The notes under the pieces: model-generated
Seen by the model: the letters and a program-made list of their open reading frames with translations, nothing else
Told to the model about the DNA's origin: nothing
Database searches by the model: none
Shown: positions 4,107-60,295 of the stretch, one piece after another
How the letters are laid out: the number at the start of each line of letters is the position of its first letter
How positions within the stretch are numbered: position 1 is the stretch's first letter
Translations under genes and position numbers: made by a program
Virus record (IMG/VR): IMGVR_UViG_3300044946_000220
Location: 38,035 to 102,034 of that record
Strand: one strand, 5' to 3'
Length of the DNA: 64,000 nucleotides
Source: a virus

Positions 4107-4135
4107 ACCTTGGCATGCTAGCGCTGTCCTGTCAA
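4107..4135 (-). promoter_or_regulatory. sigma70-type promoter for leftward operon
   Basis: TTGACA-N17-CAAGGT with TGn, at the divergence point between leftward and rightward genes. Confidence 0.4.
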
Positions 4136-4152
4136 CCGATGGAGGTAGGACG

Positions 4153-25114: not shown

Positions 25115-26959
25115 ATGGATCTGCGCAACATGCGCCTGTACGGCAACGCGCCGACTATGGGCCTTGGGCTGATGAACTACTCGCGCTCCAGCGTGTTCGG
25201 CGAGTCTAAGGTTGGCCTCAACGTAGTCAAGAATTGCAGCGACGCCTTCGTTGCCAAGATTACGAAAGACAAGCCCAAGGTAACGTTCGTCACTAGTGGC
25301 GGAGACTGGGACCTACAGAACCGCGCGCGCGAGCTGGAGAAGTTCGTTGACGGCCAGTTCTACGAGCTTGACATCTACACCCAGTTCACGCGCTCCGTAC
25401 TGGATTCGTGCATATGGGGTACCGGATTCCTCAAGTTCTACATTGCCGGTGAAGGCAAGGAAACGCGGCTCAAGTGCAACCGAGTCTTCCCGTGGGAGAT
25501 GACGGTTGACGATCAGGAGGGCCTCTACGGAGAGCCGCGCAACCTGTATCAGTCCCGCTGGATTGACAGGCTGGTTGTGCTGGCCACGTACGGGGCGGAT
25601 GACGAGGAGTTGGCCAAGAAGATTCGTGCGGCCAAGCGCGACACGGACGAAACGGACGGCATCGGCTACAACGCCACGGCCGATCAGCTTCTCGTGCGCG
25701 AGGCGTGGCACTTACCTAGCAAGTCCGGCGACACGGACGCGGCCACCACGGACGGCAGACACACGATCGCCATTGAGAACGCAACGCTCTTCGATGAGCC
25801 GTATCTCTGCGACCATTACCCATTCGTCATCTACCGGCGCCTATACCCGCCCACTGGCTTCTGGGGCGTGGGGCTAGCCGAGGAGCTTACGGGACTTCAG
25901 ATTGAGCTGAACGTCCTCATGCAGAAGGTGCAGCGGTCGTTCCACCTGCTCGGCTTTGGCCACTGGTTCGTTGAGAACTCAAGCAAGGTCAATACGCAGA
26001 AGCTGGACAACGACATCTCGATCGTCCGCTTCACCGGCACTCAACCGAAGATTGAGGCTGCAGACCCCATTTCTGAGCAGATATTCCAGCATATCGATCG
26101 CATCAAAGCCAACTGCTACGAGATCACCGGCATCAGTCAGCTTGAGGCGCAAAGCCAAAAGCCGAAGGGCCTCGACAGCGGCAAGGCGATTGACTCGTAC
26201 CTGGACATCACAACGGAGCGGTTCAACGTCTCACTGCGCATCTTCCAGGACTGCTTCCTACAGGCCGCAAAGCTTGTGCTGGAGTTGTCACGCGTCATAA
26301 CCGACAAGTACAATCCAGACTTCGACGTCATGGCGCCAGACAAGGGTGGCCGCGCATCTCACGTTCACTTCAAGAAGAACGAGCTGCGTGACGACGAGTA
26401 CCTGCTCCAACTGTTCCTGACGAACAAGCTGTCCGATGAACCCGCGGAACGCATGGCGCAAGTACAGTCCATGGCGGAAGCCGGCTGGATTGACGCACAA
26501 GACGCAAAGAGGCTGCTTGACTTCCCGGATCTTGAGAGAGCGGCTGACCTAGATAACGCCTCGTACGATTGCGTAGAGCAATGTGTGTCGATCATGTTGA
26601 AAGAGGGTCGATACAAAACTCCGCAACCGTTTCTAAACTTGGCGCAGGGTATGCGTCAAGTCCAGCAACACCTGATAAAGGGGTGGATCGACAACGTCCC
26701 GGAAGACCGACTCGCCTTGCTGAGAAACTGGATCTTGGATGCGCAGGAACTAATGACCAGAGCGTTGCCAGCTCCACCGGTACCGTCTATGCCGGGGCTT
26801 GATCCGTCTATGCCTGGCGCCCCCGGCGGCGTCCAGCCAGGCTTGCCCGGCACTATGCAGTACGCGCCCGCGCCAGTAGCTCCCGCGCCTCAGATGGGCC
26901 CTCCAGCGCTGCCGACGGTGTCTATGCCTTCGCCGGCCGCTCCGCAGTTGCCCGCATGA
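25115..26959 (+). CDS. portal protein (true start probably further upstream; frame open from 24944)
   Basis: Size and position before scaffold/capsid; LNVVKNCSDAFVAKI, FWGVGLAEEL, YEITGISQL; Pro-rich tail. Confidence 0.85.
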   Translation: MDLRNMRLYGNAPTMGLGLMNYSRSSVFGESKVGLNVVKNCSDAFVAKITKDKPKVTFVTSGGDWDLQNRARELEKFVDGQFYELDIYTQFTRSVLDSCIWGTGFLKFYIAGEGKETRLKCNRVFPWEMTVDDQEGLYGEPRNLYQSRWIDRLVVLATYGADDEELAKKIRAAKRDTDETDGIGYNATADQLLVREAWHLPSKSGDTDAATTDGRHTIAIENATLFDEPYLCDHYPFVIYRRLYPPTGFWGVGLAEELTGLQIELNVLMQKVQRSFHLLGFGHWFVENSSKVNTQKLDNDISIVRFTGTQPKIEAADPISEQIFQHIDRIKANCYEITGISQLEAQSQKPKGLDSGKAIDSYLDITTERFNVSLRIFQDCFLQAAKLVLELSRVITDKYNPDFDVMAPDKGGRASHVHFKKNELRDDEYLLQLFLTNKLSDEPAERMAQVQSMAEAGWIDAQDAKRLLDFPDLERAADLDNASYDCVEQCVSIMLKEGRYKTPQPFLNLAQGMRQVQQHLIKGWIDNVPEDRLALLRNWILDAQELMTRALPAPPVPSMPGLDPSMPGAPGGVQPGLPGTMQYAPAPVAPAPQMGPPALPTVSMPSPAAPQLPA

Positions 26960-27776
26960 CGCCTATGGCCGGCCACTCTGCCGTCGCGGCATCGCGCAGG
27001 CCTCTCGCCTCAATCTCCCGCTCCTTCCAGTCGGCCACCGCGCGAAGCTCCTGTGGAGACGCGTCCGAAGAAATTCGGTTCGTCCTGTGATTTACCACCA
27101 CCACATTGTTCGGCACGTACCCCAGGGACGGAATCAGCTTGTCCAGAGACGGGGAATCTCCACACGGGCCCCCGCTGTTGACTCTGTATGGTCTGCCGGA
27201 GACAGGGTCCTCTCCTCCTATGAGTATGTCCTTGGCGCAAATGAAGTACGGCACACCATCCCTTCGGGATCTAGATTTCGCATGCTGGAGCATGTTCTTC
27301 CGCGGATCGCTTGCGTGAGCGGATCGCTTGTCGTTGCCAGTGCACGGCTTACACACGCGAGATGTGGCACCGGATCTGCTGGTGTAAAATTCGGATCGCG
27401 CAAGTGTCTCCCCGCAGTCTACGCACGTGCGCATGCCGTCCGGATCTTGGTCAACAACGCGCACGCCAAGCTTCGCGGCCCTGAGTCTGCAAGCTTGCCT
27501 CGTCCTACCAGGCAGAAGCGAGCACGTGTCGCTACCCATCTTCGCGTACACGGACAGAAGCAACTCATCCTCCTCAGCGGACCACTTGCAACAGAGGTTT
27601 CTCCTGGGTCCGGAACCGGGGCCGCCAAGCTTTCTCAAGCCAAGCACGAGCGCCCTGGCCTTCACGCTGTGGTCTGCCCTATTCGGCAGCAGCGTACCAG
27701 CCAGTGCCCCACCAAGTTCCGGGTAGCTTGAGCGCAGGATCTCGTCCTCTTCGCGTGTCCACAACCTGCCTCCCAT
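26922..27776 (-). CDS. HNH-type endonuclease with two Myb-like repeats and zinc finger
   Basis: WTREEDEIL / WSAEEDELL; CVDC...CKPC; PSLDKLIPSLGYVPNNVVVVNHRTN. Confidence 0.8.
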   Translation of the reverse strand: MGGRLWTREEDEILRSSYPELGGALAGTLLPNRADHSVKARALVLGLRKLGGPGSGPRRNLCCKWSAEEDELLLSVYAKMGSDTCSLLPGRTRQACRLRAAKLGVRVVDQDPDGMRTCVDCGETLARSEFYTSRSGATSRVCKPCTGNDKRSAHASDPRKNMLQHAKSRSRRDGVPYFICAKDILIGGEDPVSGRPYRVNSGGPCGDSPSLDKLIPSLGYVPNNVVVVNHRTNRISSDASPQELRAVADWKEREIEARGLRDAATAEWPAIGVMRATAERPAKA

Positions 27777-29110: not shown

Positions 29111-30370
29111 ATGGCTACTACACTTGATACGACCGCACTCGCTGCGGTTCTGAAGCAGAAGTACACCCAGAGGAAGTTCAATCTCCTCTGCTACAAGAAA
29201 AACCCGTTCTACGCCCTGGTCAACAAGATTACCGACTTCGGCGGCAGCAACAAGCGTATTGGCGTGCGTAACGCCTCGCCGCAGGGTCGTGGTCCGACCA
29301 TCGCGGTGGCGCAGGGCAACAAGACGTCCAGCGCGTACCAGGGGTTCGTTGTCACCCGTACGTCGGACTACGCGACCGCGTCGATTACCGGAGAGGCCAT
29401 CAAGGCGTCAAAGGGCGATGAGAACTCGCTGATCGAGGGCCTCACCAAGGAGATCGACGGCAGCATTCACACCTGCATGCGCAACCTTGCCATCTGCATG
29501 TACCGCAACGGCGGTGGGCAGCGCGGGCAGATTGCCACCGTCAGCAACGTTGCCAGCACGGTGATCACGCTCGCCAATCTCGGCGACGTTGTGGATTTCG
29601 AGCAGGGCATGACCGTCGCGCTTGCGGCGGACGACGGCTACAACAACGGCGGCGCGCTTCTGGGCCTTCGTGGCGGCGGCGGCACTACGCTGCAGATCAC
29701 CGGCATCGACCGGGATCTCGGCACGCTGACGGCGGGACAGGTTTGGAGCACCATCTCTGGCGCCTCCACCGGCGACTACATCTTCCAGGCGGCTGCTGGC
29801 GTTGGCTCTGACTACGCCTCGATGGTTCGCGGTCTCGCAGCGTGGCTCCCCACGACTGCCCCGATCACGACCGACAACTTCTTCGGTGTGAACCGATCCA
29901 ACGACGTGACCCGCCTCGGCGGCATTCGCGTTGTGGGCTCGGGCGCCGACTACCAGGACACCCTCACCGACGCGGCCACCCGCATCTCGCGTGAAGGTGG
30001 CGAAGCAAGCCACGTCTTCATGAACCCGCTCGACTGGGCGAAGCTCGTGAAAGCCCTGGGCGCGAAGGTGGTCTACGACCGCGCTGCGCCGCTGGACATG
30101 CCGGAGTTTGCCTTCAAGGCAGTGCAGCTTGAGGGGCCCGACGGCCCGGTCAAGGTCATCGCGGATCTCAACTGTCCTCTCGGCACCGGCTATATGGTGC
30201 AACTGGATACCCTGAACTTCGAGTCTCTTGGTGAGGCTCCGATGATTCTGGACCTGGATGGCATGACCATCCTGCGTAACCCCACTACTGACTCGTACGA
30301 TGTGCGAATTGGCTACTACGGTCAGCTGACCTGTGAAGCCCCGGGGTGGAACTGCGTGATCTCGTTCTGA
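29111..30370 (+). CDS. major capsid protein
   Basis: 419 aa after scaffold, strong codon bias, LKQKY...NPFYAL, FMNPLDW, RIGYYGQL. Confidence 0.9.
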   Translation: MATTLDTTALAAVLKQKYTQRKFNLLCYKKNPFYALVNKITDFGGSNKRIGVRNASPQGRGPTIAVAQGNKTSSAYQGFVVTRTSDYATASITGEAIKASKGDENSLIEGLTKEIDGSIHTCMRNLAICMYRNGGGQRGQIATVSNVASTVITLANLGDVVDFEQGMTVALAADDGYNNGGALLGLRGGGGTTLQITGIDRDLGTLTAGQVWSTISGASTGDYIFQAAAGVGSDYASMVRGLAAWLPTTAPITTDNFFGVNRSNDVTRLGGIRVVGSGADYQDTLTDAATRISREGGEASHVFMNPLDWAKLVKALGAKVVYDRAAPLDMPEFAFKAVQLEGPDGPVKVIADLNCPLGTGYMVQLDTLNFESLGEAPMILDLDGMTILRNPTTDSYDVRIGYYGQLTCEAPGWNCVISF

Positions 30371-30403
30371 TTTTAGCGAAAGGACAAGGAAAGGAATAAC
30401 ACC

Positions 30404-30877
30404 ATGTACTCTCGCGACGCACACCCGAGCTACGCCTCGGTCATCAATCTCCGTAGCGCTTACTTCCAGCTCAAGCTGCCGGCCGCCAACGCGGCCCCTA
30501 CACTCGTGTACGGCGGCAACTGGATCGCCGGTACGGTTTATGGTCCTGGACAAGCTGTCCCGGCGACAGGGAACTTCGCCGCTACGACTCTGGCCAACAA
30601 TCAGATCGCATTCATCTCCAAAGACAACTTCTTTGGCATCATCGACGGCAGCGCGGACTGGCGCGACGCGGGGGCCAACGGTGCATACTGCACCATCTCC
30701 TACACGTCCAACTCCACCGCTGCGACTAACGAGGCCACTTCTAATCCTCAAGTCTTCATGCTCAACTTCTTCACGTCCGGGGGGTCGGCGGTAACGCCAT
30801 CCTCCAACCTCGTGGGGGTGGTTGGTGGGTTCATTGAGATCAACAACGGCAACATCACCACGCCGGGAGGCAACTGA
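30404..30877 (+). CDS. putative head decoration/minor virion protein
   Basis: Strong RBS directly after capsid gene; beta-rich. Confidence 0.55.
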   Translation: MYSRDAHPSYASVINLRSAYFQLKLPAANAAPTLVYGGNWIAGTVYGPGQAVPATGNFAATTLANNQIAFISKDNFFGIIDGSADWRDAGANGAYCTISYTSNSTAATNEATSNPQVFMLNFFTSGGSAVTPSSNLVGVVGGFIEINNGNITTPGGN

Positions 30878-31152
30878 TGGCCAAGCCCTCTCTCATGGGG
30901 GCTCTCGCAAGTCAAGACCCTCCCGATTCGGCTCCCGCGGATGGCGATGATGCCGCCACAAAGGATCCGGGCGTTCAGGCCGCACAAAGCGTTCTGGATG
31001 CCGTTCAGGACGGCGACGCCGAGTCCCTCTACGACGCGCTTTGCTCGCTCATCGACATGCACACCAGCAAGTCCAGTGACGGCGGCATGGGCGCGCCAGA
31101 ACCCAAACCCAAGCTCGTGATCGCCTTCGGCGGACACGGGCCGAGCAAGTAA
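30877..31152 (+). CDS. small acidic protein
   Basis: TGATG-coupled. Confidence 0.65.
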   Translation: MAKPSLMGALASQDPPDSAPADGDDAATKDPGVQAAQSVLDAVQDGDAESLYDALCSLIDMHTSKSSDGGMGAPEPKPKLVIAFGGHGPSK

Positions 31153-31177
31153 CTCAAAGGCTCCACAAGGATTTTCA

Positions 31178-32059
31178 ATGGCTCTCACTACTACAATTTC
31201 GGTTCAGGACGGCGCCTCCGCCGCAGTGAACCTTGCGGCGAACGTCTCGGCGAATGTTACGCCGGGCAACACTCTGGTCATCGCGCCCCAGGTGTCCACT
31301 GGATTCATTCAGTGGACCGTCACTCTTCAGAGTGACTACGGGCCCCTCAATGGGTTTACGCAGACCTTCCCCGGCCCGCTGTTTTCTCTCAGCCTGCCGC
31401 TTCCGCAACAGCCCTGTCGGCTGATCGTCACCAGCGAAGCGACGGACGGGAACAACATCTGGCAGACCACCAACATCCTTTACAACTACGCGCGCACCGG
31501 CGTTACCTCGCACTCGGCCCGACTCGTCGGGACTCTTGCGGTGACGATCGCCAATGCGAACGTTGTGTTCGACGGCGTTGCCGCAGCGCAGGGCGACGAG
31601 GTTCTGCTTGTGAACCAAGCGAACGGCGTGCAAAACGGTTTGTACGTCGTTGGCGTGCCCACGTCCAACGTCGCAGCGCTCACGCGTCCTGCTGATTACG
31701 GCAGCGGCCAGGTGCTCAAGGCGCCGGTTGTTTTCGAGATCAGCGAAGGCTCCTCCTTCTCCAATAGCACTTGGAAGATTACGTCTGCCAACGCTGTCAC
31801 GGTCGATACGTCGAACGTGCAGATCTACCCGCGTATGCTCAAGGGAGCCATTGCCAACGTCGCTTCGGCCAACGCCGCTGCGAACGTCACCGGCCTGTGG
31901 ATCCTGTCGAACACGTCCGTTGTTCTCGTGCAGTCCAACACGGCCGCCAACGCGGCCACGTACGTGAGTGCGAACGTCGGAAATGCGGCCAACGCCGGGT
32001 ACTTTACTGTACTCAGCACGGCAAACGCGGCCGGCACATGGCTGCTTATGAATTGGTAG
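31178..32059 (+). CDS. virion fibre/decoration protein
   Basis: GDEVLLVNQANGVQNGLYVV motif common in phage fibres; ANA-rich tail. Confidence 0.7.
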   Translation: MALTTTISVQDGASAAVNLAANVSANVTPGNTLVIAPQVSTGFIQWTVTLQSDYGPLNGFTQTFPGPLFSLSLPLPQQPCRLIVTSEATDGNNIWQTTNILYNYARTGVTSHSARLVGTLAVTIANANVVFDGVAAAQGDEVLLVNQANGVQNGLYVVGVPTSNVAALTRPADYGSGQVLKAPVVFEISEGSSFSNSTWKITSANAVTVDTSNVQIYPRMLKGAIANVASANAAANVTGLWILSNTSVVLVQSNTAANAATYVSANVGNAANAGYFTVLSTANAAGTWLLMNW

Positions 32060-32132
32060 GGTGATGTAGGTAAACACACTGCGTGGTCGCAAGACTGCGC
32101 AGTAGTTTGCTTCCAACTTCGTCAGGTAATCG

Positions 32133-32882
32133 ATGCCCGCTACCGTAAGCCTAGATTCAATGATGACGTCCGCCATACAGCGGGCAGGCATTGAAAACTT
32201 AGTGGCAGAGACAAACAGCGTCATCACCAAGCCAGAGCTGCGCGGGTACTTCAACGAGGCTTTGGCTGAGACGTATGACCTTCTGATTGCTGCGCGTGCA
32301 CAGGAGTTCTATCGCAAAGACTTCGTCTTCACCACGACCGGCAACCAGGCGGTATACCCGCTTCCGTCTGACTTCTACGAGCTTCTGTCCGTAGACATAC
32401 AGCTGGGCGCCAACGTTGTGCTGTCCGCGAAGCCGTACATGGAGAGCGAGCGAAACGCGTATAGGGTATATAGTGGCTGGTTCTACTATACCCCCGTCAT
32501 GTTTCGTTTGCTTGGAAACCCAGATACGACTGGCGCAACCCTGCAGGCGCCGATGATCTCATTCATACCTGCACCGAGCACCCTTACCGAGGTGGTCCTC
32601 CACTACATGCCCGCGTTCCGCGTGTTCCTCACCGACGGTTCCGAGGATAAGAACGTCTTCGACGGAGTGAACGCGTGGGAGGGCCACGCCATCTGGAACG
32701 TCGCCGCCATGTGCCTTGAGAAGCTAAAGCAGGACTCCGGTTTCGCTCGCGCACAGGTGGAGCGGTACACGAAGCGCATTGAAGCACTCGCACCAGATCG
32801 CCACGCCGGAGATCCAGAGCGAGTCCACGACTCGCTAAGCGACATCGACGGCGGTGCGTTCGGCTGGAACGGTTTGGCCTAG
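32133..32882 (+). CDS. head-tail adaptor (tail tubular protein A-like)
   Basis: ELRGYFNEALAETYDLL, YPLPSDFYEL; position. Confidence 0.8.
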   Translation: MPATVSLDSMMTSAIQRAGIENLVAETNSVITKPELRGYFNEALAETYDLLIAARAQEFYRKDFVFTTTGNQAVYPLPSDFYELLSVDIQLGANVVLSAKPYMESERNAYRVYSGWFYYTPVMFRLLGNPDTTGATLQAPMISFIPAPSTLTEVVLHYMPAFRVFLTDGSEDKNVFDGVNAWEGHAIWNVAAMCLEKLKQDSGFARAQVERYTKRIEALAPDRHAGDPERVHDSLSDIDGGAFGWNGLA

Positions 32883-33070
32883 ATCGGCGTCGCGGCCACC
32901 TTGCACGTCCACCAGCAGCCGACGCCTTGATCGCACACGCAAACGGCCTTGGCCTTTGCGCCGCACGCAGGCGGATTGTCGTCGCAACCCGTTGCCGCTC
33001 CATCGGCTCTACTTGACAGCGTAACGAAGCCCAACACGGCCAACGCAAGCACTACAGCAATCTTCTTCAT
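32879..33070 (-). CDS. secreted 63-aa protein with one six-Cys module
   Basis: GGAGG RBS, MKK signal peptide, C-x6-C-x7-CxC-x5-C-WWT-C. Confidence 0.85.
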   Translation of the reverse strand: MKKIAVVLALAVLGFVTLSSRADGAATGCDDNPPACGAKAKAVCVCDQGVGCWWTCKVAATPI

Positions 33071-33084
33071 GGACGCATCCTCCA

Positions 33085-33534
33085 TTACAACGGGCACTCC
33101 CACGAACAGCCAGCCTTCTCGCTGCATGAGCACGACGGGTGCAGTCCAGCGAAGCACTTCACGCTGGGCGCCTCTCGGCATGTCTTGTACACCGGCGGCG
33201 ATGGCGGCGGCTTCGGACAGGCCCACCAGCAACCCACACTTGGATCGCATTCGCAGTTGGCCGGCTTCGTGAACTGGTCATCGCAATACGGGCGCGTCGT
33301 TCCGCACGTAAACTCGGCGGTGGTCATGCACGCCCACTTACAGCCAGCCCCCGGCAGGCAATCGCAAAGCGGTTTTTCGTCACGCCAGCACTTGGCCTTT
33401 GGCTTCCCGGCACACTGGCCATACTCGTCGTTCGGGTCTTTTCCGCCAGCAGCGTAAGCCGTCGCCTCCTCTCCTGACGTAGCGAACGCCAGCCCGACCG
33501 CCGCCAGCGCCGCCGCAACCACTAGCTTCTTCAT
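33085..33534 (-). CDS. secreted protein with three six-Cys modules
   Basis: MKK signal peptide; three CxC-x4-GCxWxC repeats. Confidence 0.88.
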   Translation of the reverse strand: MKKLVVAAALAAVGLAFATSGEEATAYAAGGKDPNDEYGQCAGKPKAKCWRDEKPLCDCLPGAGCKWACMTTAEFTCGTTRPYCDDQFTKPANCECDPSVGCWWACPKPPPSPPVYKTCREAPSVKCFAGLHPSCSCSEKAGCSWECPL

Positions 33535-33547
33535 GATCCGTCTCCCT

Positions 33548-33949
33548 CTACCTGCAGATAGCGCTGTTCGGTGCGGTCAATCCAGACGCGCAGGTTGTTC
33601 CACGCGCACAGACGCAAATCGCCTCGCCTGGCTCAAACCTGACGTTCAATTCGTCCTGAGTGGCGCCGTCAATGGTTGTTACGGCAAACACAGCGCCTGC
33701 GGCGGACATGGGCTCGTCGTTCGGGGCGGCATCGGTAGGCACTGCCCCAACGAATTCCTTGGTGGCAACAATGGTCGCGTTTTCGCAAGTAAACCAGTCG
33801 CCATACACAGCGTAAGACGGGCAGGTTCCCGCGTAGATCCCGCTGTCCCCGTACTCGGGATCGAAGCCCGCAGGCTGAGCGGAAAACTCGCTGGTGCATC
33901 CGGCAGACATGAGCGCGATGAGCGCAATGGCAATGCGTTTCATGTTCAT
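33548..33949 (-). CDS. lipoprotein
   Basis: MKRIAIALIALMSAGC lipobox. Confidence 0.8.
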   Translation of the reverse strand: MNMKRIAIALIALMSAGCTSEFSAQPAGFDPEYGDSGIYAGTCPSYAVYGDWFTCENATIVATKEFVGAVPTDAAPNDEPMSAAGAVFAVTTIDGATQDELNVRFEPGEAICVCARGTTCASGLTAPNSAICR

Positions 33950-33956
33950 TCTCCCG

Positions 33957-34151
33957 TTATCGTTGCCAGCTTACGACACATCCCCAGTGTGGCGGGTTCC
34001 CGTGCGCCGTATCGAAAATGCACATGAGTTCCGTTTTGGGCGGACACTTGGGCTCCGGCTCCCAGCACCAGCCGCCCGCCGCCGCGTCCTCGGTTGACGC
34101 CAGCACGCAAACCACCAGCGCCAGCACCACGGTCGCCACCATCTTCTTCAT
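33957..34151 (-). CDS. secreted protein with a four-Cys variant of the module
   Basis: MKK signal peptide; C-x6-C-x7-C...WGC. Confidence 0.78.
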   Translation of the reverse strand: MKKMVATVVLALVVCVLASTEDAAAGGWCWEPEPKCPPKTELMCIFDTAHGNPPHWGCVVSWQR

Positions 34152-34174
34152 GTCGTCCACCGCCTTCTACACGC

Positions 34175-34202
34175 AGTCTAAGCACGTGCTTGGCTCTGTC
34201 AA
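34175..34202 (-). promoter_or_regulatory. sigma70-type promoter of the antisense secreted-protein cassette
   Basis: TTGACA-N16-TAGACT, 23 nt upstream of ATG 34151. Confidence 0.6.
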
Positions 34203-34205
34203 CTG

Positions 34206-34922
34206 GTGCGCGTGACTTCTGTCGTAAAAGCTACGCCGCGGGCCAGGACCAGCATCCTGACGCCACAGACGTCCACGGCGCCTCGCGCCAACGGGCAGGT
34301 GGGTTCCAAGGACACTGCTTTCTCTAACGAGCTGCAGCCTGTCCCGCCGCTTCACCTGGATCCGCAGGAGATCACGCCGGAAAACCTGCAAAAGCAGTTT
34401 ATGGACGCGTACGAGACGCTTCGGCGCGCTACGCTTCCCATGCGGCAGAACCCGGCTTCGGCGCCTAGCCACAGCCGCGGTATTCAGTGCACCGGCACGC
34501 CGGCACAGCCACAGATCATCCTTGTCCCCCATGCGCTCGGTCGCCCGTACACCGGCGCACATCCGGTGCGAAACCAGGGCGCCCCCTTTGTTGGCTCTGA
34601 AACGGTCCCTGGCGCGGTTGCGCACATCACCCTGGCCAACGGGGGCTCCGGCTACACGACGCCTCCAACGGTCTCTGTAAGCGGCGGCGGAGGCAATGGC
34701 GTCACGGCCGAGGCGGTGCTGGCCGACGGCGCGGTGTCCTACGTGAAGCTCAACGGCGCCGGGCAGAATCACACAAGCCCTCCGCAGGTTTCTTTCAGCG
34801 GTGGAGGCGGAACTGGAGCGGTGGCGAATGCCGTGCTGCCGCCCAGTTTTGACGCAACCAAGTTCGCTCAGTTCAGCACGACGAGTACCACGACGGCAGA
34901 CTTCCAACTTTTCGGAGATTAG
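34206..34922 (+). CDS. tail-associated protein with Gly-rich GGSGYT..PTV repeats
   Basis: NGGSGYTTPPTVSVSGGGG and GAGQNHTSPPQVSFSGGGG. Confidence 0.7.
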   Translation: MRVTSVVKATPRARTSILTPQTSTAPRANGQVGSKDTAFSNELQPVPPLHLDPQEITPENLQKQFMDAYETLRRATLPMRQNPASAPSHSRGIQCTGTPAQPQIILVPHALGRPYTGAHPVRNQGAPFVGSETVPGAVAHITLANGGSGYTTPPTVSVSGGGGNGVTAEAVLADGAVSYVKLNGAGQNHTSPPQVSFSGGGGTGAVANAVLPPSFDATKFAQFSTTSTTTADFQLFGD

Positions 34923-35593
34923 TGGCCGCCGCGAAGCCAAAGATATCCGAAGAGGAGCGACTTCAGAAGAATCGCGAATACCAGGCCGCATGGTACGCGA
35001 AGCTGACGCCCGAAAAGAAGGCGGAGCGCTTTGAGGCCAGCTACGCACGCAAACGCGCCAAGGGCGGCAGATCTGCCGAGGAGAAGGCTGCGCGGCGCGA
35101 ATATGAGCGCAAAGCTGCTGCTGAGCGTACCGCGGAAGAGAGGGCCAGGCGGGCGGCAAAGTCCAGAGAGTACTACCCGCGTTACCCGAAGCGCACGCGC
35201 AAGCTTAGCCCAGAGCAAAGAGAAAAGAACAACAGTCTGGCTCGCGCGCGCGGACGAACGTACACCGCCGAACAGAAGGAACGAAAGGCCGCGTACTTGA
35301 AGGAGTACCTTGCTAGCAAGAAGGAGAAAACCTACGCAGGTCATCTTGCGCGCAAATACGGCATGACCGCCAGCGACTATGCCAAGGCGCTAGAGGCGCA
35401 GGGCGGTGTGTGCGCGCTGTGCGGTGGGGTGAACTCTGACGGCAAACGTATTTTCGTAGACCACTCTCACGAAACGGGCAAAGTGCGCGCACTGCTGTGC
35501 AGGCTGTGTAATCTGGCCATCGGCTCAATGAGAGAAGACCCGGCTCTGATGCGCAGGGCGGCGGACTACGTAGAGAGCTGGGCAAAACTGTGA
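34922..35593 (+). CDS. endonuclease VII-family protein
   Basis: KYGMT...QGGVCALC...VDHSHETGKVRALLCRLCN. Confidence 0.92.
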   Translation: MAAAKPKISEEERLQKNREYQAAWYAKLTPEKKAERFEASYARKRAKGGRSAEEKAARREYERKAAAERTAEERARRAAKSREYYPRYPKRTRKLSPEQREKNNSLARARGRTYTAEQKERKAAYLKEYLASKKEKTYAGHLARKYGMTASDYAKALEAQGGVCALCGGVNSDGKRIFVDHSHETGKVRALLCRLCNLAIGSMREDPALMRRAADYVESWAKL

Positions 35594-38500
35594 GTAAGTC
35601 CCCGGCGGCGCCGGAATTTAGTATCATTGATATAAGCCTGGGGACAGGCCTCTCCCAGAAGTGGGACCCTCGGCTGCTGCCTTTGGGCCAAAGCGCTACT
35701 GCCACCAACCTTCTGGCATCCAAGCAGGGTAGCTTCAACAAGACGCAAGGATTTTCGACTCTCTCCTCCACCGATCCCGAAACCTCCGTCTCCGCCCTCG
35801 GCATCTCCCGCCTTACCTCGAAGGACTACGGCCTCGTAGCGGTTGCGGACGCCAACCCAGGCGGCGAATCGTGCGTTTGGTCTTACGACGAAGCTGGCAA
35901 CAACCTCTTCCTGAATGACAGGATCAGCGAAGTCTACATCCCGCCGACGGACACGGTGCTCGCTCAGAGCGACACGCCTGATGAACTGGACACGTGCGTC
36001 TGCCAGCTTCCAGGTTCGCCGTACGAACTACACGTGGGCCTCTTTGCCGACGGCCTGATCTACTACTCGGTCACACAAGCTACGGTGGAGGTTGGTACCA
36101 CTTCGGTTTCCCGCTCCTTCGTAGTGCCTACTTCCGGCGTTACCGTCCTCGATTCGCTGGGCCACACGTACGCCGCACCCAAGGTCATTCTCGTTGACAA
36201 CCAGGCCGTGCTTACGGTTGCGGACGCTGCCGGGGGCACAATCTACGGCACGAGCCTAGACATGCTGCAGCCGTGGCAGGGCTGGACGATTGCACGGACG
36301 CTCACCACGACAGCCGCGCAGCCAGCGTTTCCAGGCATCTCATTCGGCAACAACCCGACCGGCGTCTACGACACGTGCACGATCGACGACACGCCTTCCA
36401 GCGCGATCTTCCTTCTGGCGTACTTCAACACCAGCAACCTCTTCGTCATACAGCAGTTTGACAACACCTTCGGCGCGCTGTCCGTAGGCACGATCGCCGA
36501 TGCCGCCCTGTCCGGTAAGCTGCCAACGGCTATTGCGGTGCGTGCCAACATTTCGGACGGCGCCGCCTGGATTGCCTACGCGTACTGGTCCAACGGCTCG
36601 ACGACGCAGCCCACGACGACGGTCAACGCCGCCGCGCTGGTGTACCCGAGCCTTGCCGCGTCCTTCTCCACGCCATGCGTACTTGCCGGTGGCCTGACGA
36701 ACGGCAACAACTTCTACCCGCCGCCGCAGCTGATCGATATCAAGCCGGTTCCTGGCACGGTCAACGGCTTCGGCGACACGCAACAGGTTGTCTGGAGTCC
36801 GCCCCCGCTGCCGCGCTCTGGTGTGACGTCATACGCCTCTCCGGTAACGATCGGCGCCAACGAGTACAACAGCGACATCAGCTTTCCTTCCTCCTTCAAC
36901 ACGCCATGCGCCGCCATATTCCAGGCGGCCTGTTACCCGTTCTTCGGCGCCACCCAGCTGCACCATAACCAGCCGCGCTGGACGAACGGTGCCACGCTGG
37001 CCTCGCGCATGGCGGTGATTACGGATCCGCTGGGGGCCGCACACGCGTACCTAGCCGGCTGGATCCCGAGCAGCAACCTGATCCCAGGCGCCGACTCGCT
37101 ACAAAACTTCCAGGTGACTAATCCTGGTGGCGGGTACGCTATCAACGTCAACACCTCGTCAAACACTACACCGAATATCATTCAGGTTGCCTATCCGCCT
37201 CAGATCATATTCGACAACGCCGGCACGGGCGGCAGCGGCGCACAGGCTACGGTTGCCGTCAGCACTACGCCTGGCGCCACGTTTGGGCAAATCGTTGGGG
37301 TCGACGAAATCAGTGGCGGCTCAGGCTACACGTCGAAGCCTACCGTAAATGGTGGCTTCTCCGGCACGTTGGGCGCCGGTACGGCATCGTTTGGGACCGG
37401 GTTCTCTGGGACCGTAACCTATGGGTCGCTGGGCAACTTTATCGACGCCGCCGTTGTCTCCGGGGGCACCGGCTACAACACCGTGCCGAACTCCGTGCCG
37501 ATCATCCTAACGGCGCTGTCGGCACTCGACGTGACTGGGTTTTTCGGATATGCCGTAGTGAACGCTGCCGGCGTGATCGCTGGCATCAGCGTCGTGTCAC
37601 AGGGAGTGGCGGACGCGCCTGGGACATACTCCATTACGGACGCCACTGGCGGATTCTCTGGCACGATTTCATACGACCTTGCCGAAGTCACTTCGCAGGA
37701 CATCCAGGGCACCTTCTACCTGTTCTGTATGGACACGTTTTCGGACGCGACCTCGCCGAACGGGCTTGGCGGTACCGGCAACGTACCGCTTCGCATGTGC
37801 GGCCTCTGGCGCCCCCGCCTCGGCAAGATCGGCATGTTTGCGACGGCTCATGTCCTGCCACACCTGGTGGCAAACCCCAACGCCAGCGCTACGGGCAACC
37901 TATTCCAGACGGACTTGCCGATCGACGTCTCCTCCCTGGAGGCCGTAGGCACTGCGTGCAGCGCGGACTTTGGCAACGAGTACAGCTACCATGCCGACGA
38001 GCTGGGCGGCCTTGTGGGCTTCGCTGGCGGCCTCCCGTGCCTCTACGACGGTTGCCGCACCGCCGACTACGCCTTCCCTTACTACCCAGAGAACGTCGTC
38101 CAGGCGCCCAACTCGCCCAGCACGGTGGCCATTGGCGCCAACATACCGTCAGGCACGTACCAGTACATCGCGATCTATACGCGCAAGGACTCGCAAGGAA
38201 ACATCCATCGGTCCGGCCGCAGCGTAGCCGCAACCGTCTCGCTTCCCACAGGCGCGGGGCCGTACCTGGTCACGCTGAACGTCCCGACGATGGGCTACAG
38301 CACAGCTCAGCGAGGGCTTTCCGCCGAGGACGTAGCGCTGGGCATCCCGCTGGGGCCTGCCGAGACGGTGGAACTTTACCGCACGGAAAACGGTGGCACC
38401 AACTTCCACAGCATTCGCCCATGGACTGTGCCAGGTCAGTTGCCCGTTACGACGTTCCCAGCCAACAGCCTGTCTGTTCCATTCGTCCAGATCCAGGACG

Positions 38501-39699
38501 GCATCACCGACGCAGACCTCGTCAACAACCCGCTCCTGTACGGAGACGGAAGCGACGGAATCACCCCCGGCAGCATCGTTGACAACCTTTGCCCTCCTCC
38601 GCTTCAGGGCCTCATCACACACAAGCAGCGCTGGTGGGGCTACGACGGCAATCAGGTTTGGTACACCAAGGCCTGGACGGACGGCGAAGGCCCCGGCTGG
38701 AATGAGCTGTTCGCTTTCTCCGTAGACGACGGGCCCGGCAACATCACCGCGCTTGCCACGATGGACGAGCGTCTGTTCATCTTCAAGCGAGACCGTATCT
38801 TTTATGTTACGGGTGACGGGCCAGACGACAACGGAAGCCAGCAAGACCTGCAGCCGCCACAGCGCGTGCAAAGCGACGTTGGTTGTATCAACTGGCGCAG
38901 CGTTATCGGAACGCCCGCGGGCCTGTGGTTCCAGTCGGACAACGGCCTGTACGTCATGACGCGCAAGCTGGAAGTGCAGCCCTCCGGCAAGTTCGTAGAG
39001 GACACGCTTGCGGCGTATCCGGACATCACTTCTGCCACGCTGGACATGCGCAACGGACTGGTGGTTTTCACAGCCAACGGACCTTCGCCAACCGTGCCGG
39101 GAGATACGATTGGGACTCTGATCCTTTACAGCTGGGTCCTCGACACCTGGTCCACTGGCGTCCTGAACTCCGGAGATTCACTAGCTCCCGAGTTGGAGAG
39201 TGCGGTTCTTTCTGGCCCAAGCTTGGCGTATACCACGACGGATGGTGTTTCAGCTATATACCGTCAGACCACAGGCACTGGCGCTGGCTCCTACTTTGTG
39301 AACGGACAGTATCAATCTCTGGACTGGGTCTCGCCGTGGACACACTCTCCATCGCCACAGGGCTGGATGCGAGCGGAGATGATCAACCTTCTGTGGGACG
39401 ATCCGGATCCTCACGCACTTACGGTTCAGGTGGCGTACAATTATTCCAACGTGTGGGTAGATTCATGGACCGTTGGTGCCACGTCGCAGGCCGCAAGGAC
39501 GACGCCGTTGGTTCAATGGCAGTTCCAGCCGACGGTCACTCAGATAGAAAGCCTCAGAATACGAGTAACAGACGCAGCTGACGCTACGGTACCACCCATA
39601 TCCGGTGAAGGCCCCACGCTTATTGGCGTGTCGCTTCAGTACGTTGACTTGGGCGGAAATATGCGCTTCTCGATCAGTCAGAGAGGCTCTGCTCCATGA
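35590..39699 (+). CDS. tail nozzle (tail tubular protein B-like) with inserted domains
   Basis: 1369 aa beta-rich; GNITALATMDERLFIFK, DVGC; located after adaptor. Confidence 0.78.
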   Translation: MSKSPAAPEFSIIDISLGTGLSQKWDPRLLPLGQSATATNLLASKQGSFNKTQGFSTLSSTDPETSVSALGISRLTSKDYGLVAVADANPGGESCVWSYDEAGNNLFLNDRISEVYIPPTDTVLAQSDTPDELDTCVCQLPGSPYELHVGLFADGLIYYSVTQATVEVGTTSVSRSFVVPTSGVTVLDSLGHTYAAPKVILVDNQAVLTVADAAGGTIYGTSLDMLQPWQGWTIARTLTTTAAQPAFPGISFGNNPTGVYDTCTIDDTPSSAIFLLAYFNTSNLFVIQQFDNTFGALSVGTIADAALSGKLPTAIAVRANISDGAAWIAYAYWSNGSTTQPTTTVNAAALVYPSLAASFSTPCVLAGGLTNGNNFYPPPQLIDIKPVPGTVNGFGDTQQVVWSPPPLPRSGVTSYASPVTIGANEYNSDISFPSSFNTPCAAIFQAACYPFFGATQLHHNQPRWTNGATLASRMAVITDPLGAAHAYLAGWIPSSNLIPGADSLQNFQVTNPGGGYAINVNTSSNTTPNIIQVAYPPQIIFDNAGTGGSGAQATVAVSTTPGATFGQIVGVDEISGGSGYTSKPTVNGGFSGTLGAGTASFGTGFSGTVTYGSLGNFIDAAVVSGGTGYNTVPNSVPIILTALSALDVTGFFGYAVVNAAGVIAGISVVSQGVADAPGTYSITDATGGFSGTISYDLAEVTSQDIQGTFYLFCMDTFSDATSPNGLGGTGNVPLRMCGLWRPRLGKIGMFATAHVLPHLVANPNASATGNLFQTDLPIDVSSLEAVGTACSADFGNEYSYHADELGGLVGFAGGLPCLYDGCRTADYAFPYYPENVVQAPNSPSTVAIGANIPSGTYQYIAIYTRKDSQGNIHRSGRSVAATVSLPTGAGPYLVTLNVPTMGYSTAQRGLSAEDVALGIPLGPAETVELYRTENGGTNFHSIRPWTVPGQLPVTTFPANSLSVPFVQIQDGITDADLVNNPLLYGDGSDGITPGSIVDNLCPPPLQGLITHKQRWWGYDGNQVWYTKAWTDGEGPGWNELFAFSVDDGPGNITALATMDERLFIFKRDRIFYVTGDGPDDNGSQQDLQPPQRVQSDVGCINWRSVIGTPAGLWFQSDNGLYVMTRKLEVQPSGKFVEDTLAAYPDITSATLDMRNGLVVFTANGPSPTVPGDTIGTLILYSWVLDTWSTGVLNSGDSLAPELESAVLSGPSLAYTTTDGVSAIYRQTTGTGAGSYFVNGQYQSLDWVSPWTHSPSPQGWMRAEMINLLWDDPDPHALTVQVAYNYSNVWVDSWTVGATSQAARTTPLVQWQFQPTVTQIESLRIRVTDAADATVPPISGEGPTLIGVSLQYVDLGGNMRFSISQRGSAP

Positions 39700-40449: not shown

Positions 40450-42996
40450 ATGCCCAACATTGCTAGCGGGTTCAACTTACTTCCGCAAAACCAGGGTTTG
40501 CAGGGCGTTAGCCAGCAGGGCATTGCCGGCACTGGCGCTCAGAATAACGCTCTCGGCTTGGCGCAGCTTGCGGCCACAGGTCAGGTCCCGAGCGCCGCAG
40601 ACATGCAGATGCGGAGCGGACTTCAGCAGGCCCAGCAGGCCGCTGGCGCTCAAGCCGCCTCCACGCGAGGTTCCCTGGGTCTTGCCGGGGCCCAACGAGC
40701 TGCCATGGCAACTCAAGCCGGCCTTGCCCAGCAAGCAGTCAACGCGGGCGCAGCGCAGCGCGCGCAAGAGCAACAGGCAGCGCTGTCCCAATACGGGCAA
40801 CTGGCTGGACAGCAGCGCTCGCAAGATCTTCAGGGCGACACCAACACCCTTCAGCAGGCCCAGGCCAACGCTCAGTTGGCGCAACAGCAGCAGCTGGCCA
40901 ACCAGGGCATGAGCAGCAACATCCTCGGCGGCGTTGCTGGTCTCGCAATGAAGGCGGCGCCCGCGCTTGCGATGATGTCCGACGCAAACGCCAAGACTGA
41001 GCTGTCCTACGGCGACATGCCGGTTGGCACCTCCTACCTTCAGGAGCCTGGCGGCCCCCACGACGGGCATACTCCGGCCAGTTTCGCCTTCCGCGAGGAA
41101 AGCGCCGGCCCTGGCCACGAAGGCTTTGTCGCGCTGATCGATCACCAGAGCGGCAGGATCGGAAAGGTCCCGCAGGTGCCTCTTACGCGCTCAGAAGCAG
41201 CCCAGGTGATGGCCCCGCATGGCGCCGGCCCAATAGGCCGTCACGGTGACATGGCGCTCGGCGTTGCCGGCGTGGCTCCCGCTATGAAACAGCGGTACGG
41301 AGACATGCCCGTTGGCGAGCCCGATCACCAGCCGATTGGCAACGTCTCCACCTACCAAAACGCAGATGGAACCTGGGGACGTGACGAGCCTCAGTCCTCC
41401 AGCGGGCCTGCGCCTATGGGCATGGCCAACGCCAAGAATCCTGCGGACGAAGCTTCCGACGCATCTCTCCGCGCCATGACCGCTCCCGGAGGCTTCGCTG
41501 GTGGCTACCGTCCCGACAGGGGCAGCCTCACCTTCAGCGGCCCCTCCGAAGCGGCCGACGCGCAGAAGCCTGTGTCCTGGCTGGACAAGCCGCCGCCCGA
41601 AGGCATTAGCTCCGACGCCGCCTTGCAAAAGCTCGGCTTCTCTCTTGGCGTTGGCGGCGCACTCGGCTCCAGCGACAAGGGCCCCCGCTCAACTTGGGGC
41701 GCTGCCGACTACGGCATGAAGCCGCCCAGTCCTGGCATCGCCCGCTTCACCGGCCAGGAAGACCCTTCGGCCAACCAGACCTTTGACGAACTCGCACAGT
41801 CTCACGCGGGGCAAGGCGGCACCGTAAACCAGGCCGCGCTTGACGATCGCATGACGTCCGACGCTGGCGCAAAGGACGAAGCGCATTACCAGGGCTACCT
41901 GCGAGGAATCAAGGAAGCCACCGCTCCGGACAGCATCGCGAAGGTAAGCCACCTAGCCCCATACATGGATGCAGGACGTCCTGGCGACTCTTTCGTCATG
42001 AGCCCGCACGGCTATGTACCAGCCGAACCGCCTCAGCCCACGCAACCGCTTCTTGCTCCGTACAAGCCGGCTTCTGGCGACCAGCCAGCGCAGGTGCTTT
42101 CGCCCACTGGATACGTGCGCGCAGATCCGCCACCGCCTCCGCAGGAAGGGCCCGTCAGGTACGCGGATCGCATTTACAACGACGAGCCCATCGGCCCGCA
42201 ACCTTCTGCGCCCGCCCAAGACTATCGCGGCATGCAGATCCCTGCCGGCCAAGAAGGTGGCTGGTCCACGGGAGCACCGGCACCGGAAACGAACCCAATC
42301 CAAGCTGGCTTCGGCGCCGCGGTTGACAAGATGGATGCGGCACAGAAAAGCTATGCCAATTGGCGTAACGCGGCTTCGGTGGCGGACAGGCAGATCGCAC
42401 AAGATCAGCGCGCGCAGCCATCTCTACTGAAGACGGTTGGCAACAGCCACGCTTCCAACGCGGAAAAACCGTCCGGTTTCGCGTCTGCGTCCGGCACTGC
42501 ATTCAAGGATGCCTCCGGAACCGGGTACTACGTACCTAACGGCGGCCACCGTGCCCTCGAAATGCTTGCTGGGCCGACCGGAGTCGTACCCGCAGAAGGT
42601 CAGTTCCGAGGCATTGTGCGCCCAACAGCGGAACCTGATGCCGTTACATCCGACGCGCGCGCGAAGCAGATGGAGGCTTCGCATCCTGGGTTTGCGGCGG
42701 CTAGCCAATTCATGGATGCGCTCGAACCTCATGCCTATACATGGAGGGACAAGTCGGTTGCGCCCAATTCTGGAGCGGCCAACTCGCCGAACATCGGAGT
42801 GTTTGCGCAGGACGTAGAAAAGACCCCGTTTGGCGCCTCTATTGTACAGCGCGACCCGCACACCGGGTACCGCACGATGGACAAGTCAGCGCTGCTTGGA
42901 GCGCTTGCGGCCAGTGTTGGTGCAACCAAGAAGCTGAGCGACGATCACGCGATGCGAATCGAGCAACTTGAGCGCGCCATGGGCACGAGGCGATAA
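40450..42996 (+). CDS. internal virion/ejection protein with C-terminal peptidase S74 domain
   Basis: Gln/Ala/Gly-rich N-terminus; TSDARAK, YTWRD, IGVFAQDVEK, RIEQLE. Confidence 0.8.
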   Translation: MPNIASGFNLLPQNQGLQGVSQQGIAGTGAQNNALGLAQLAATGQVPSAADMQMRSGLQQAQQAAGAQAASTRGSLGLAGAQRAAMATQAGLAQQAVNAGAAQRAQEQQAALSQYGQLAGQQRSQDLQGDTNTLQQAQANAQLAQQQQLANQGMSSNILGGVAGLAMKAAPALAMMSDANAKTELSYGDMPVGTSYLQEPGGPHDGHTPASFAFREESAGPGHEGFVALIDHQSGRIGKVPQVPLTRSEAAQVMAPHGAGPIGRHGDMALGVAGVAPAMKQRYGDMPVGEPDHQPIGNVSTYQNADGTWGRDEPQSSSGPAPMGMANAKNPADEASDASLRAMTAPGGFAGGYRPDRGSLTFSGPSEAADAQKPVSWLDKPPPEGISSDAALQKLGFSLGVGGALGSSDKGPRSTWGAADYGMKPPSPGIARFTGQEDPSANQTFDELAQSHAGQGGTVNQAALDDRMTSDAGAKDEAHYQGYLRGIKEATAPDSIAKVSHLAPYMDAGRPGDSFVMSPHGYVPAEPPQPTQPLLAPYKPASGDQPAQVLSPTGYVRADPPPPPQEGPVRYADRIYNDEPIGPQPSAPAQDYRGMQIPAGQEGGWSTGAPAPETNPIQAGFGAAVDKMDAAQKSYANWRNAASVADRQIAQDQRAQPSLLKTVGNSHASNAEKPSGFASASGTAFKDASGTGYYVPNGGHRALEMLAGPTGVVPAEGQFRGIVRPTAEPDAVTSDARAKQMEASHPGFAAASQFMDALEPHAYTWRDKSVAPNSGAANSPNIGVFAQDVEKTPFGASIVQRDPHTGYRTMDKSALLGALAASVGATKKLSDDHAMRIEQLERAMGTRR

Positions 42997-56078: not shown

Positions 56079-57005
56079 TTGACGTTTGCATGTAGGCCAG
56101 TCACTGGGGCCAAGCCGTCTCACCAGGCGAAACTGGATCGGCGCGTGCCGCTGGAGCACCACCCAGCCGTCATGTCGGCGCTACTGTCCGACAGATACGG
56201 GTCGACAGCGCTGCCAGCGGCCTTCGACTTGGCGCCGCATCGTCCCGGCGTGTTCGATCAAGGGTCGTGCGGATCCTGCGAGCCTCATAGCGGATCTGCG
56301 GCGGCCTACACGGCGTTTTCTGCTGCAGGTAAGCCACTGGGTTTCGTTCCCAGCATGCGAGTTCTTTACGCAGCTGCGCGCGCGCGTGAACGGGCTGCGG
56401 CCACGCAAGTTGGCAGCCCTTTGCAACCACTGACAGACACTGGCCTGGAAACTGCCGATCTGGTCGCCGTGTTTTCCGAATACGGCGTAATGGACAGGCT
56501 ATCCACGCCTGGACTTGTCGGCGGGCTCACGCCAGACGGAAGATTTAGCGACATCTGGGGACCTCAGGACGTGTCGTCCGTGTCTCCGTCTGTTCCGCCC
56601 AACGTGAACGACGAGTCGAACCTGAAGGACCTGGAGGCGTCGGGGCGGCGTCTGATCGTTGGACAGTACGGGATCAATCTGTCCGGCGACAATTCTGAGG
56701 ATTTGCTGGCGGCTGCCATCGCGAACAACATCCCGGTTCAAATGGCGTTCTTCTGCGACACGGCGTTCCAGCAGTTGCAGCCAGGACAAGTCGCGGCGCC
56801 ACCCAACATGAACGACTCTAACGGTGGCGGTCACGCGGTGTATCTGTCTGGTTACCAAACACAAACTGATGGCTCGCGCGTCTTTACGCTGAGCAACAGT
56901 TGGGGGTTGGGGTGGTGCAACAAGGGGACGTGCCTTGTTGGCTCAGCATGGCTGAAGGCCGCCTGGGAAGCTTGGCCGTACGCAATCGTAGGAGCTTCGT
57001 CATGA
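56079..57005 (+). CDS. papain-family (C1) cysteine peptidase
   Basis: DQGSCGSC, GGHAV, NSWG. Confidence 0.9.
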   Translation: MTFACRPVTGAKPSHQAKLDRRVPLEHHPAVMSALLSDRYGSTALPAAFDLAPHRPGVFDQGSCGSCEPHSGSAAAYTAFSAAGKPLGFVPSMRVLYAAARARERAAATQVGSPLQPLTDTGLETADLVAVFSEYGVMDRLSTPGLVGGLTPDGRFSDIWGPQDVSSVSPSVPPNVNDESNLKDLEASGRRLIVGQYGINLSGDNSEDLLAAAIANNIPVQMAFFCDTAFQQLQPGQVAAPPNMNDSNGGGHAVYLSGYQTQTDGSRVFTLSNSWGLGWCNKGTCLVGSAWLKAAWEAWPYAIVGASS

Positions 57006-59602: not shown

Positions 59603-60295
59603 GTGATCCACGTAGATTTAGCCCCCCAGATCCGATGGGCAAAAGACGGTAGCGTAGTCGCCACTCCGCGCGAAGTATATGTGTCCAGCTTTTCGCAGTC
59701 AGCCGTGCGCAAGTTCCGAGAGGATGTGGCCGAGGCTGCGGGGTCTGGGCAACCTGTGATTCCACTGCACGTCCAAAGCTACGGGGGATCTGCGCATGGC
59801 CTGCTAGCCATGGTGGACATTTTGGACTCAATTAGAGGTCAGATAGGCATTGCGACTATCGCTACTGGTAACGCCATGAGTGCCGCCTGTGCACTGCTGT
59901 CCTGTGGCGACGAGGGCCTGCGCTTTTGCGCACCAAATGTCACGCTCATGGTGCACGAGGTAAGCTCTTTTTCTGCTGGCAAGACGATCGACATTCAGTC
60001 CGACGCTCGTGAAACGGCGCGGCTCAATCAATCCGTGCTTTCCGTCATGGACCGCGGCTGCGGGCATCCGCCCGGATATTTTAGTCAGCTCATTCACAGC
60101 AAGGGCCACGCTGACGTCTTCCTGTCTGCGAAACAAGCGCTCAAACACAACCTATGCAACGTCATCGGCCTGCCGCACTTGGCCCTCCAAGTCACGGCCG
60201 AGTACGCGTTTGGTGTGCCCGCGGTGCCGAAGCCGCACAAGCATAGCGCCGCCTGTAAACATGGGGGGCCGAAGTCGGGCAAGGCTGCCAAGTGA
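59603..60295 (+). CDS. ClpP-like (S14) protease
   Basis: SYGGS, GNAMSAA, MVHEVS, DVFLSAKQAL. Confidence 0.9.
   Translation: MIHVDLAPQIRWAKDGSVVATPREVYVSSFSQSAVRKFREDVAEAAGSGQPVIPLHVQSYGGSAHGLLAMVDILDSIRGQIGIATIATGNAMSAACALLSCGDEGLRFCAPNVTLMVHEVSSFSAGKTIDIQSDARETARLNQSVLSVMDRGCGHPPGYFSQLIHSKGHADVFLSAKQALKHNLCNVIGLPHLALQVTAEYAFGVPAVPKPHKHSAACKHGGPKSGKAAK

Follow-up and report, generated by a model that had tools for sequence, protein, structure and literature searches.

The findings in this study indicated that an uncultured soil phage carries an antisense cassette of four genes, g1 to g4, between its head-tail adaptor and tail genes, and that the cassette encodes cysteine-rich proteins whose export was predicted from their leader sequences. 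The cassette lies on the minus strand of a 64,000-nucleotide stretch, hereafter the window, which comprises bases 38035-102034 of IMG/VR virus record IMGVR_UViG_3300044946_000220, a sequence of 102,034 bp with direct terminal repeats. The stretch was found in soil metagenomes from several studies, and the adaptor and nozzle genes of the phage are of the podovirus type (SU10-like). With a probability of roughly 0.4, the cassette is an early-expressed accessory operon that acts on the cell envelope, in a superinfection exclusion or entry block resembling that of the T5 lipoprotein Llp. The cassette is built on a six-cysteine module. New in this study are a promoter motif common to the cassette and other units of the phage, the insertion of the cassette relative to the related phage L125, a soil contig in which g3 is missing, and the absence of g1 and g3 from the calls of both public gene callers.

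The cassette genes and their six-cysteine module

The four open reading frames (ORFs) of the cassette are arranged head to tail between 34151 and 32879, adjacent ones being separated by no more than 14 nt. The first, g1 (33957..34151, minus strand), encodes an exported-type peptide of 64 aa with four cysteines in its mature part, and g2 (33548..33943, or with its start at 33949, minus strand) a lipoprotein of 131 or 133 aa with the lipobox LMSAGC and threonine at position +2. These are followed by g3 (33085..33534, minus strand), an exported-type protein of 149 aa with three tandem six-cysteine modules, and g4 (32879..33070, minus strand), an exported-type protein of 63 aa with a single module. 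Ribosome-binding bases of the GGAGG/GGGAGA type (Shine-Dalgarno, SD, sites) were present 5-7 nt ahead of the ATG in all four genes. Each product begins with MKK or MKR, continues with a hydrophobic core (mean Kyte-Doolittle value of 2.8-3.7 over 10 residues) and has small residues in an AXA-like cleavage site after the leader. Export signals in g1-g4 were assessed by a heuristic check. When all six frames of the 102-kb genome were examined for an SD site combined with a signal-like N-terminus, 12 ORFs were recovered; four of them were the consecutive g1-g4, and most of the others were shadow ORFs. The number of cysteines per mature protein was even in every case (18, 6, 6 and 4), and mature g4 and g1 measured only about 41-45 aa.

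These results agreed with the original prediction, which had described four antisense genes between adaptor and tail genes, with signal peptides on all four and one lipobox. The ORFs and their coordinates were as claimed, the left neighbour was an adaptor of family PF24175 with the nozzle and tail genes lying beyond the cassette, and tripartite leaders were found in all four products. The prediction had also placed a module once in g4 and three times in g3, and exactly that distribution was recovered. The pattern C-x6/7-C-x7/9-C-x-C-x4-G-C-x-W-x-C matched four times in the 102-kb genome, at 33328-33414, 33217-33306 and 33094-33180 in g3 and at 32903-32986 in g4 (all minus strand), and not once in 30 shuffles. 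Short linkers, one of them proline-rich, separate the copies in g3. A hidden Markov model (HMM) built from the four copies returned 55-62 bits for each. Pairwise identity among the copies was 42-52% for nucleotides and 30-39% for amino acids; the six cysteines, the glycine and the tryptophan were invariant, and the loops varied freely.

This conservation is the decisive argument that the ORFs are coding, since only selection on the protein could keep the cysteine, glycine and tryptophan positions invariant in copies of such low nucleotide identity. Codon statistics trained on the long genes of the phage gave g2 a coding log-likelihood of +36.6 bits, and the GC content at third codon positions (GC3) of the cassette genes (0.68-0.78) was the same as in the confident genes of the phage. 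Both public gene callers (IMG, Logan) missed g1 and g3, and they began g4 too far upstream (products of 117 and 123 aa), so that it overlapped g3; a simple gene finder used in this analysis made identical errors. Over g1 lies a plus-strand, same-phase shadow ORF (34018-34215) without an SD site, and its high GC3 was uninformative because its third codon positions are those of g1. Small cysteine-rich genes in GC-rich phages are thus concealed by shadow ORFs. Having a promoter, an SD site, a signal peptide and a rare cysteine spacing, g1 appears to be real as well, less surely than g2-g4.

The original prediction further regarded g1 as a degenerate copy of the module, and this held at the level of pattern. 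Its spacing, C-x6-C-x7-C ... G ... W-x-C, lacks C4 and C5. Alignment with MAFFT retained C2, C3, G, W and C6, with C4 replaced by F, C5 replaced by N and two residues inserted, and the spacing was found in 0.03% of composition-preserving shuffles in a post-hoc test. The module HMM did not bear the claim out, returning -3.6 bits for g1, which is below detection; g2 was likewise undetected. Kinship of g1 with the module is plausible on the strength of the pattern, and the joint loss of C4 and C5 would reasonably fit a C4-C5 disulfide across a hairpin turn. In g2, a variable tether is followed by a six-cysteine domain, the cysteines after the lipid-bearing one being spaced C-x11-C-x56-C-x-C-x5-C-x11-C. 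The C-x-C-x5-C portion of this ending equals the C3-C5 spacing of the module, a weak, post-hoc likeness found in 0.9% of shuffles.

Structure prediction and fold search, which the original prediction had proposed as a check, yielded a hairpin model for g4 but no fold match. The AlphaFold2 (AF2) model of mature g4, computed from a five-row alignment, had a mean predicted local distance difference test (pLDDT) score of 79 and predicted a beta-hairpin over C3-C6, in which C3/C4 and C5/W/C6 would lie on the strands and the x4-G segment would form the turn that separates them. A single-sequence AF2 model of g3 was poor (pLDDT 49). Fold search of the module model (Foldseek PDB, exhaustive VIA, BFVD) returned no match; a model of 41 residues shows neither novelty nor kinship.

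The domain had not been recognized when it was first noticed, and it matched no described family in Pfam, PHROGs, NCBIfam, PADLOC, the PDB or 1.84 billion protein representatives. Searches of g1-g4 against the first four of these collections returned no significant match and only a few weak ones over leader peptides. At E<=1, Pfam gave nothing for g3 and g4, and for g1 only two matches below the cutoff of 27 bits, one to Kazal_C6 with 14.8 bits and one, mainly over the leader, to MDH with 15.4 bits. The NCBIfam matches Bd0108, Phr and SE2200 were below cutoff and confined to leader regions, and were rejected. A profile search of the PDB gave nothing relevant. With HMMER, the module profile recovered only the phage's own g4 from the 1.84 billion representatives, which stand for 15 billion proteins, and a word-based search of 5.8 billion proteins with g2 and g3 recovered only g2 itself. 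Six-frame search for the module gave no confirmed match in viral contigs (2.9 million) or in species genomes (185,579), and among the matches listed for a degenerate DNA pattern in the viral contigs there was only TG-repeat or low-complexity noise. No match to positions 30000-37000 (blastn) or to g3 (tblastn) was present in 50,697 phage records. A protein atlas held nothing for g3; its leads for g2 (<=0.83), to cysteine-rich hypothetical proteins of Myxococcota, were weak and were not taken as evidence. The literature search found no description of such a module. Protein databases may under-represent families of this kind, which gene callers miss, and orphan status needs six-frame checking, since two of the four genes were missed by callers and a third was given a wrong start.

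Two other identities were considered and rejected. A precursor of a ribosomally synthesized and post-translationally modified peptide (SCIFF/ranthipeptide-type) was set aside on the Sec-type signals, the lack of a radical-SAM maturase gene nearby and the lack of an NCBIfam match. A virion component was set aside because proteins with export signals would not be expected to assemble in the cytoplasm.

Promoter, insertion and strain variation

The original prediction had also given the cassette a promoter of its own, TTGACA-N16-TAGACT, and the site was found on the minus strand with TTGACA at 34202-34197, a 16-nt spacer and TAGACT at 34180-34175. It is the sole sigma-70-like site in 32500..34600; genome-wide there were six such sites where 2.3 were expected, and five of the six lie on the minus strand. 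The TTGACA element lies within an exact 15-mer, GCACCRGTTGACAGA (34209-34195), so that the putative promoter feature occupies 34175..34209 in all. Three exact copies of the 15-mer are present in the genome, all on the minus strand: at 34195-34209 and 150-164 of the window (the latter at genome position 38198) and at genome positions 36520-36534, outside the window. A fourth copy with three mismatches lies at 4128-4142 of the window (genome 42176). Each copy precedes a leftward gene block, and the two other exact copies directly head blocks of small genes. In 204 kb of sequence, chance cannot account for a 29-bit motif being present in three exact copies. Judged by its placement, the 15-nt motif, an extended -35 element, is probably the phage's own early promoter class.

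Because the exact 15-mer is common to them, the promoter of the cassette is of the same class as those of the leftward, early-looking units, and this points to expression early in lytic growth rather than from a prophage. The leftward units would themselves be early and read by host polymerase. At its far end, the cassette meets the adaptor gene in the palindrome CTAG (32879-32882), in which the stop codons of g4 and the adaptor overlap, leaving no space for a terminator on either strand. No terminator-like site was found on the minus strand of the cassette. Leftward and rightward transcription would therefore collide, and convergent late transcription could silence the cassette.

Comparison with related phages suggested that the cassette was gained in one lineage. 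Homologues of the adaptor numbered 18 proteins, down to 27% identity, the closest of which (P0003-P0012) were 41-78% identical. L125 was the sole relative with similar gene order and enough sequence to judge. In L125, a homologue of the nozzle gene (33% identity over 700 residues, E 2e-82) comes immediately after the genes for capsid, decoration protein and adaptor; the cassette, the gene for a 238-aa virion-type protein (p238; 34206-34922, plus strand) and an Endonuclease VII-family gene (34922-35593, plus strand; PF02945, E 1.6e-23) are all lacking. Coding similar to g1-g4 was found in 0 of 10 related loci. By this comparison of gene order, the cassette is part of a lineage-specific insertion of 2.7 kb, to which p238 and the nuclease gene also belong. 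The insertion is not recent, since the GC content of the cassette (0.617) equals that of the genome (0.605 +/- 0.023), and recent foreign DNA was rejected on the same ground. The Endonuclease VII-family gene sits between p238 and the nozzle gene, a place where L125 has no such gene; it may be a free-standing mobile nuclease that came with the insertion.

Near relatives carrying the cassette were seen in contigs from other soil studies, and two of these contigs differ from the window in informative ways. In a contig of 239 nt with 96% identity, the differences are confined to the tether of g2 just past the lipobox and comprise five replacement and two silent codon changes; all nine listed differences of this strain fall within the 16 codons that follow the lipobox (33838-33883). 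The tether of the g2 lipoprotein thus looks hypervariable. A second contig, of 216 nt and 94% identical over g4, joins 33061 to 33526 at a 10-nt repeat and skips exactly 464 nt, from the start codon of g3 to the start codon of g4, which amounts to the g3 unit. This suggests that the number of modules varies among strains. Each variant was represented by one low-depth contig, which makes the evidence for both weak.

The neighbours of the cassette are structural genes read rightward. To its left are a capsid-type gene (29111-30370), with homologues 41-57% identical in related contigs, a decoration-like gene (31178-32059; PHROG 2647) and the SU10-type head-tail adaptor gene (32133..32882, plus strand; PF24175, E 2.9e-10), which is convergent with g4. 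To the right of the inserted genes lie a nozzle-like gene encoding 1369 aa (35590-39699), a fibre-like gene (40450-42996) and a beta-helix spike-like gene (50394-52679). The sole other minus-strand gene of the late region (26922-27776), which extends into the end of a portal-like gene, codes for a protein of 284 aa that contains a Myb-like DNA-binding domain. Near the right end of the genome are genes for a papain-family cysteine protease domain (56421-57005) and a ClpP-family protease (59705-60295). A tyrosine recombinase is encoded in two ORFs, one with the SAM-like N-terminal domain (4793-5134) and one with the catalytic domain (5153-5818); these could be either a frameshifted integrase or two separate genes, which bears on whether the phage is temperate.

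Possible roles of the cassette at the cell envelope

We infer the export, disulfides, timing, targets and role of g1-g4 as follows. Host RNA polymerase would read the operon leftward from the sigma-70-type promoter, switching it on early and independently of the surrounding rightward structural genes, and convergent late transcription may then shut it off. Three of the products would be exported as soluble proteins via Sec, and g2 would pass through the lipoprotein pathway and become anchored in the membrane. Outside the cytoplasm, oxidation would turn them into rigid, all-disulfide mini-domains, with g2 acting at the membrane face and the other three (single-module g4, three-headed g3 and the variant g1) acting in the periplasm or wall space. 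The modules would most likely serve as binders of host envelope components and change what the infected cell takes in, so that adsorption or entry of further phages would be blocked and progeny would be guarded from debris, as T5 Llp does with FhuA. The early-class promoter, the export signals, the lipid anchor and the rigid cysteine frames with free loops, present with one, three or no repeats of the module, all fit this envelope-binder reading best, as do the lineage-specific presence of the cassette, its location among tail genes and its variation among strains.

The best documented case of this kind is Llp of T5, a small lipoprotein that depends on a disulfide, is produced early, from newly injected phage DNA, and has its gene adjacent to that of the receptor-binding protein. 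Acting from the periplasm, Llp blocks FhuA (PMC9586334; bioRxiv 10.64898/2026.03.26.714494). Like Llp and the Cor proteins of T1/phi80/N15, the cassette includes a small phage lipoprotein, and it also lies in the tail region with an early-class promoter. In contrast to them, g2 shares no sequence similarity, is about twice as long and has three soluble cysteine-rich partners, and its neighbours are the adaptor, p238, Endonuclease VII-family and nozzle genes rather than a receptor-binding gene. A lipobox and a functional disulfide characterize Llp and Cor; g2 has the lipobox and six further cysteines that may form disulfides. The cassette may work like Llp by this analogy; it is not a member of the Llp family, since it shows neither homology nor adjacency to a receptor-binding gene.

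Spackle (Sp) and Imm of T4 provide a second comparison. Both are small proteins that this virulent phage makes early and exports, and they keep further phages from entering the infected cell. The cassette differs from them in having no sequence similarity, and in place of tandem disulfide modules Sp consists of one helical protein.

Several observations weigh against an envelope-directed exclusion operon. Searches of Pfam, PHROGs, NCBIfam and PADLOC revealed no homology to exclusion proteins, Llp and Cor included. The likely receptor-binding genes, those for the fibre and the spike, lie 6-16 kb from the cassette, and four genes exceed, to our knowledge, the needs of any known exclusion system. 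The coding statistics of g1, g3 and g4 were only weakly positive (+3 to +7 bits), and the shadow ORF over g1 reached +20 bits against +6 for g1 itself.

The same proteins could act as periplasmic inhibitors of host or rival-phage enzymes, such as proteases and peptidoglycan hydrolases, with g3 as a multi-headed form. T4 Spackle works against tail lysozyme, and tandem small-inhibitor proteins are comparable. Small all-disulfide domains with fixed cysteines and variable loops, repeated threefold in g3, are what such a role would call for, and the export signals and early-class promoter are in keeping with it. Pacifastin, Kazal, Bowman-Birk and knottin domains also resemble the module in having about 30 residues, three presumed disulfides, a C-x-C followed by glycine, tandem arrays and variable loops. 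However, these families are mainly eukaryotic, and the spacing of the module fits none of them, with no match in Pfam, the PDB or the fold search. EGF and other small disulfide-rich families of Pfam likewise gave no match near the curated threshold. At E<=1, Pfam and NCBIfam held no inhibitor family for these proteins save the sub-threshold Kazal_C6 in g1, and there was no sequence or fold match to solved inhibitors, which leaves an inhibitor role unlikely.

The original prediction had called the cassette moron-like. A moron of a temperate phage, in the definition of Juhala and Hendrix (lambda bor and lom are examples), is an extra transcription unit that has a promoter of its own and is inserted between genes adjacent in related phages; many morons are antisense, and many code for proteins of the envelope. 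Part of this description stood, as the cassette is antisense, has a sigma-70-like promoter site of its own and is inserted between genes that are neighbours in L125. In the strict sense of lysogenic conversion, the cassette would be expressed from a prophage and would give the lysogen a trait based in its envelope, for example an altered surface or resistance of the stress, metal or serum type, and the tyrosine recombinase encoded by the phage is consistent with that. The rest of the description found less support. No terminator was found, the GC content is not distinct, and the promoter motif is of an early class common to the leftward blocks. The recombinase is in two ORFs, and search of the 185,579 species genomes with the adaptor profile found no related prophage and no candidate host. 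A conversion moron in the strict sense is therefore a doubtful fit.

It is quite improbable that the cassette yields diffusible products freed at lysis, which would be signals, decoys or bacteriocin-like toxins for the cells nearby. The extracellular stability typical of disulfide-rich mini-proteins and the very small size of mature g4 and g1 would suit such a role; no processing, export or receptor genes were found nearby, no signalling or bacteriocin family was matched beyond the leader regions, and the lipoprotein in the operon favours action within the cell envelope.

It is very improbable that the cassette assists lysis, in which case g2 would regulate lysis or be a spanin of the outer membrane and g1, g3 and g4 would be antiholin-like periplasmic sensors. 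A lipoprotein gene does sit here in a tight operon of envelope-directed proteins, and the rest of the window yielded no identifiable lysis cassette. However, lysis genes do not typically lie within the tail module or have an early-class promoter, and the cassette is missing from a relative that has the same structural genes. The neighbours of g2 are soluble proteins with cleaved signals, with no holin, endolysin or membrane-anchored coiled-coil partner adjacent, and a spanin was rejected on these grounds.

That g1, and possibly g3 or g4, are shadow frames or non-coding, as the omissions and the wrong start of the public callers and the bit score of 34018-34215 could imply, is scarcely credible given invariant cysteine, glycine and tryptophan residues across copies near saturation at the DNA level, a module absent from shuffles, and SD sites, signal peptides and a promoter aligned on the minus strand, where the rival plus-strand frame has no SD site.

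Disulfide-rich mini-proteins are rare in bacteria and phages, and the module is a candidate for a new binding scaffold. A bolder form of the envelope-binder reading, which we hold only tentatively and would sooner doubt than adopt, is that the module is a new, phage-born disulfide scaffold of about 28-30 residues and three disulfides, serving as a modular, fast-evolving binder. It would be deployed in one-headed, three-headed, degenerate and lipid-anchored forms from one early operon against several envelope targets. The promoter motif provides a concrete handle on the timing of cassette expression. If this reading is true, the cassette would represent a multi-component system for envelope take-over or exclusion without a described counterpart, and one largely hidden from standard gene calling in GC-rich phages.

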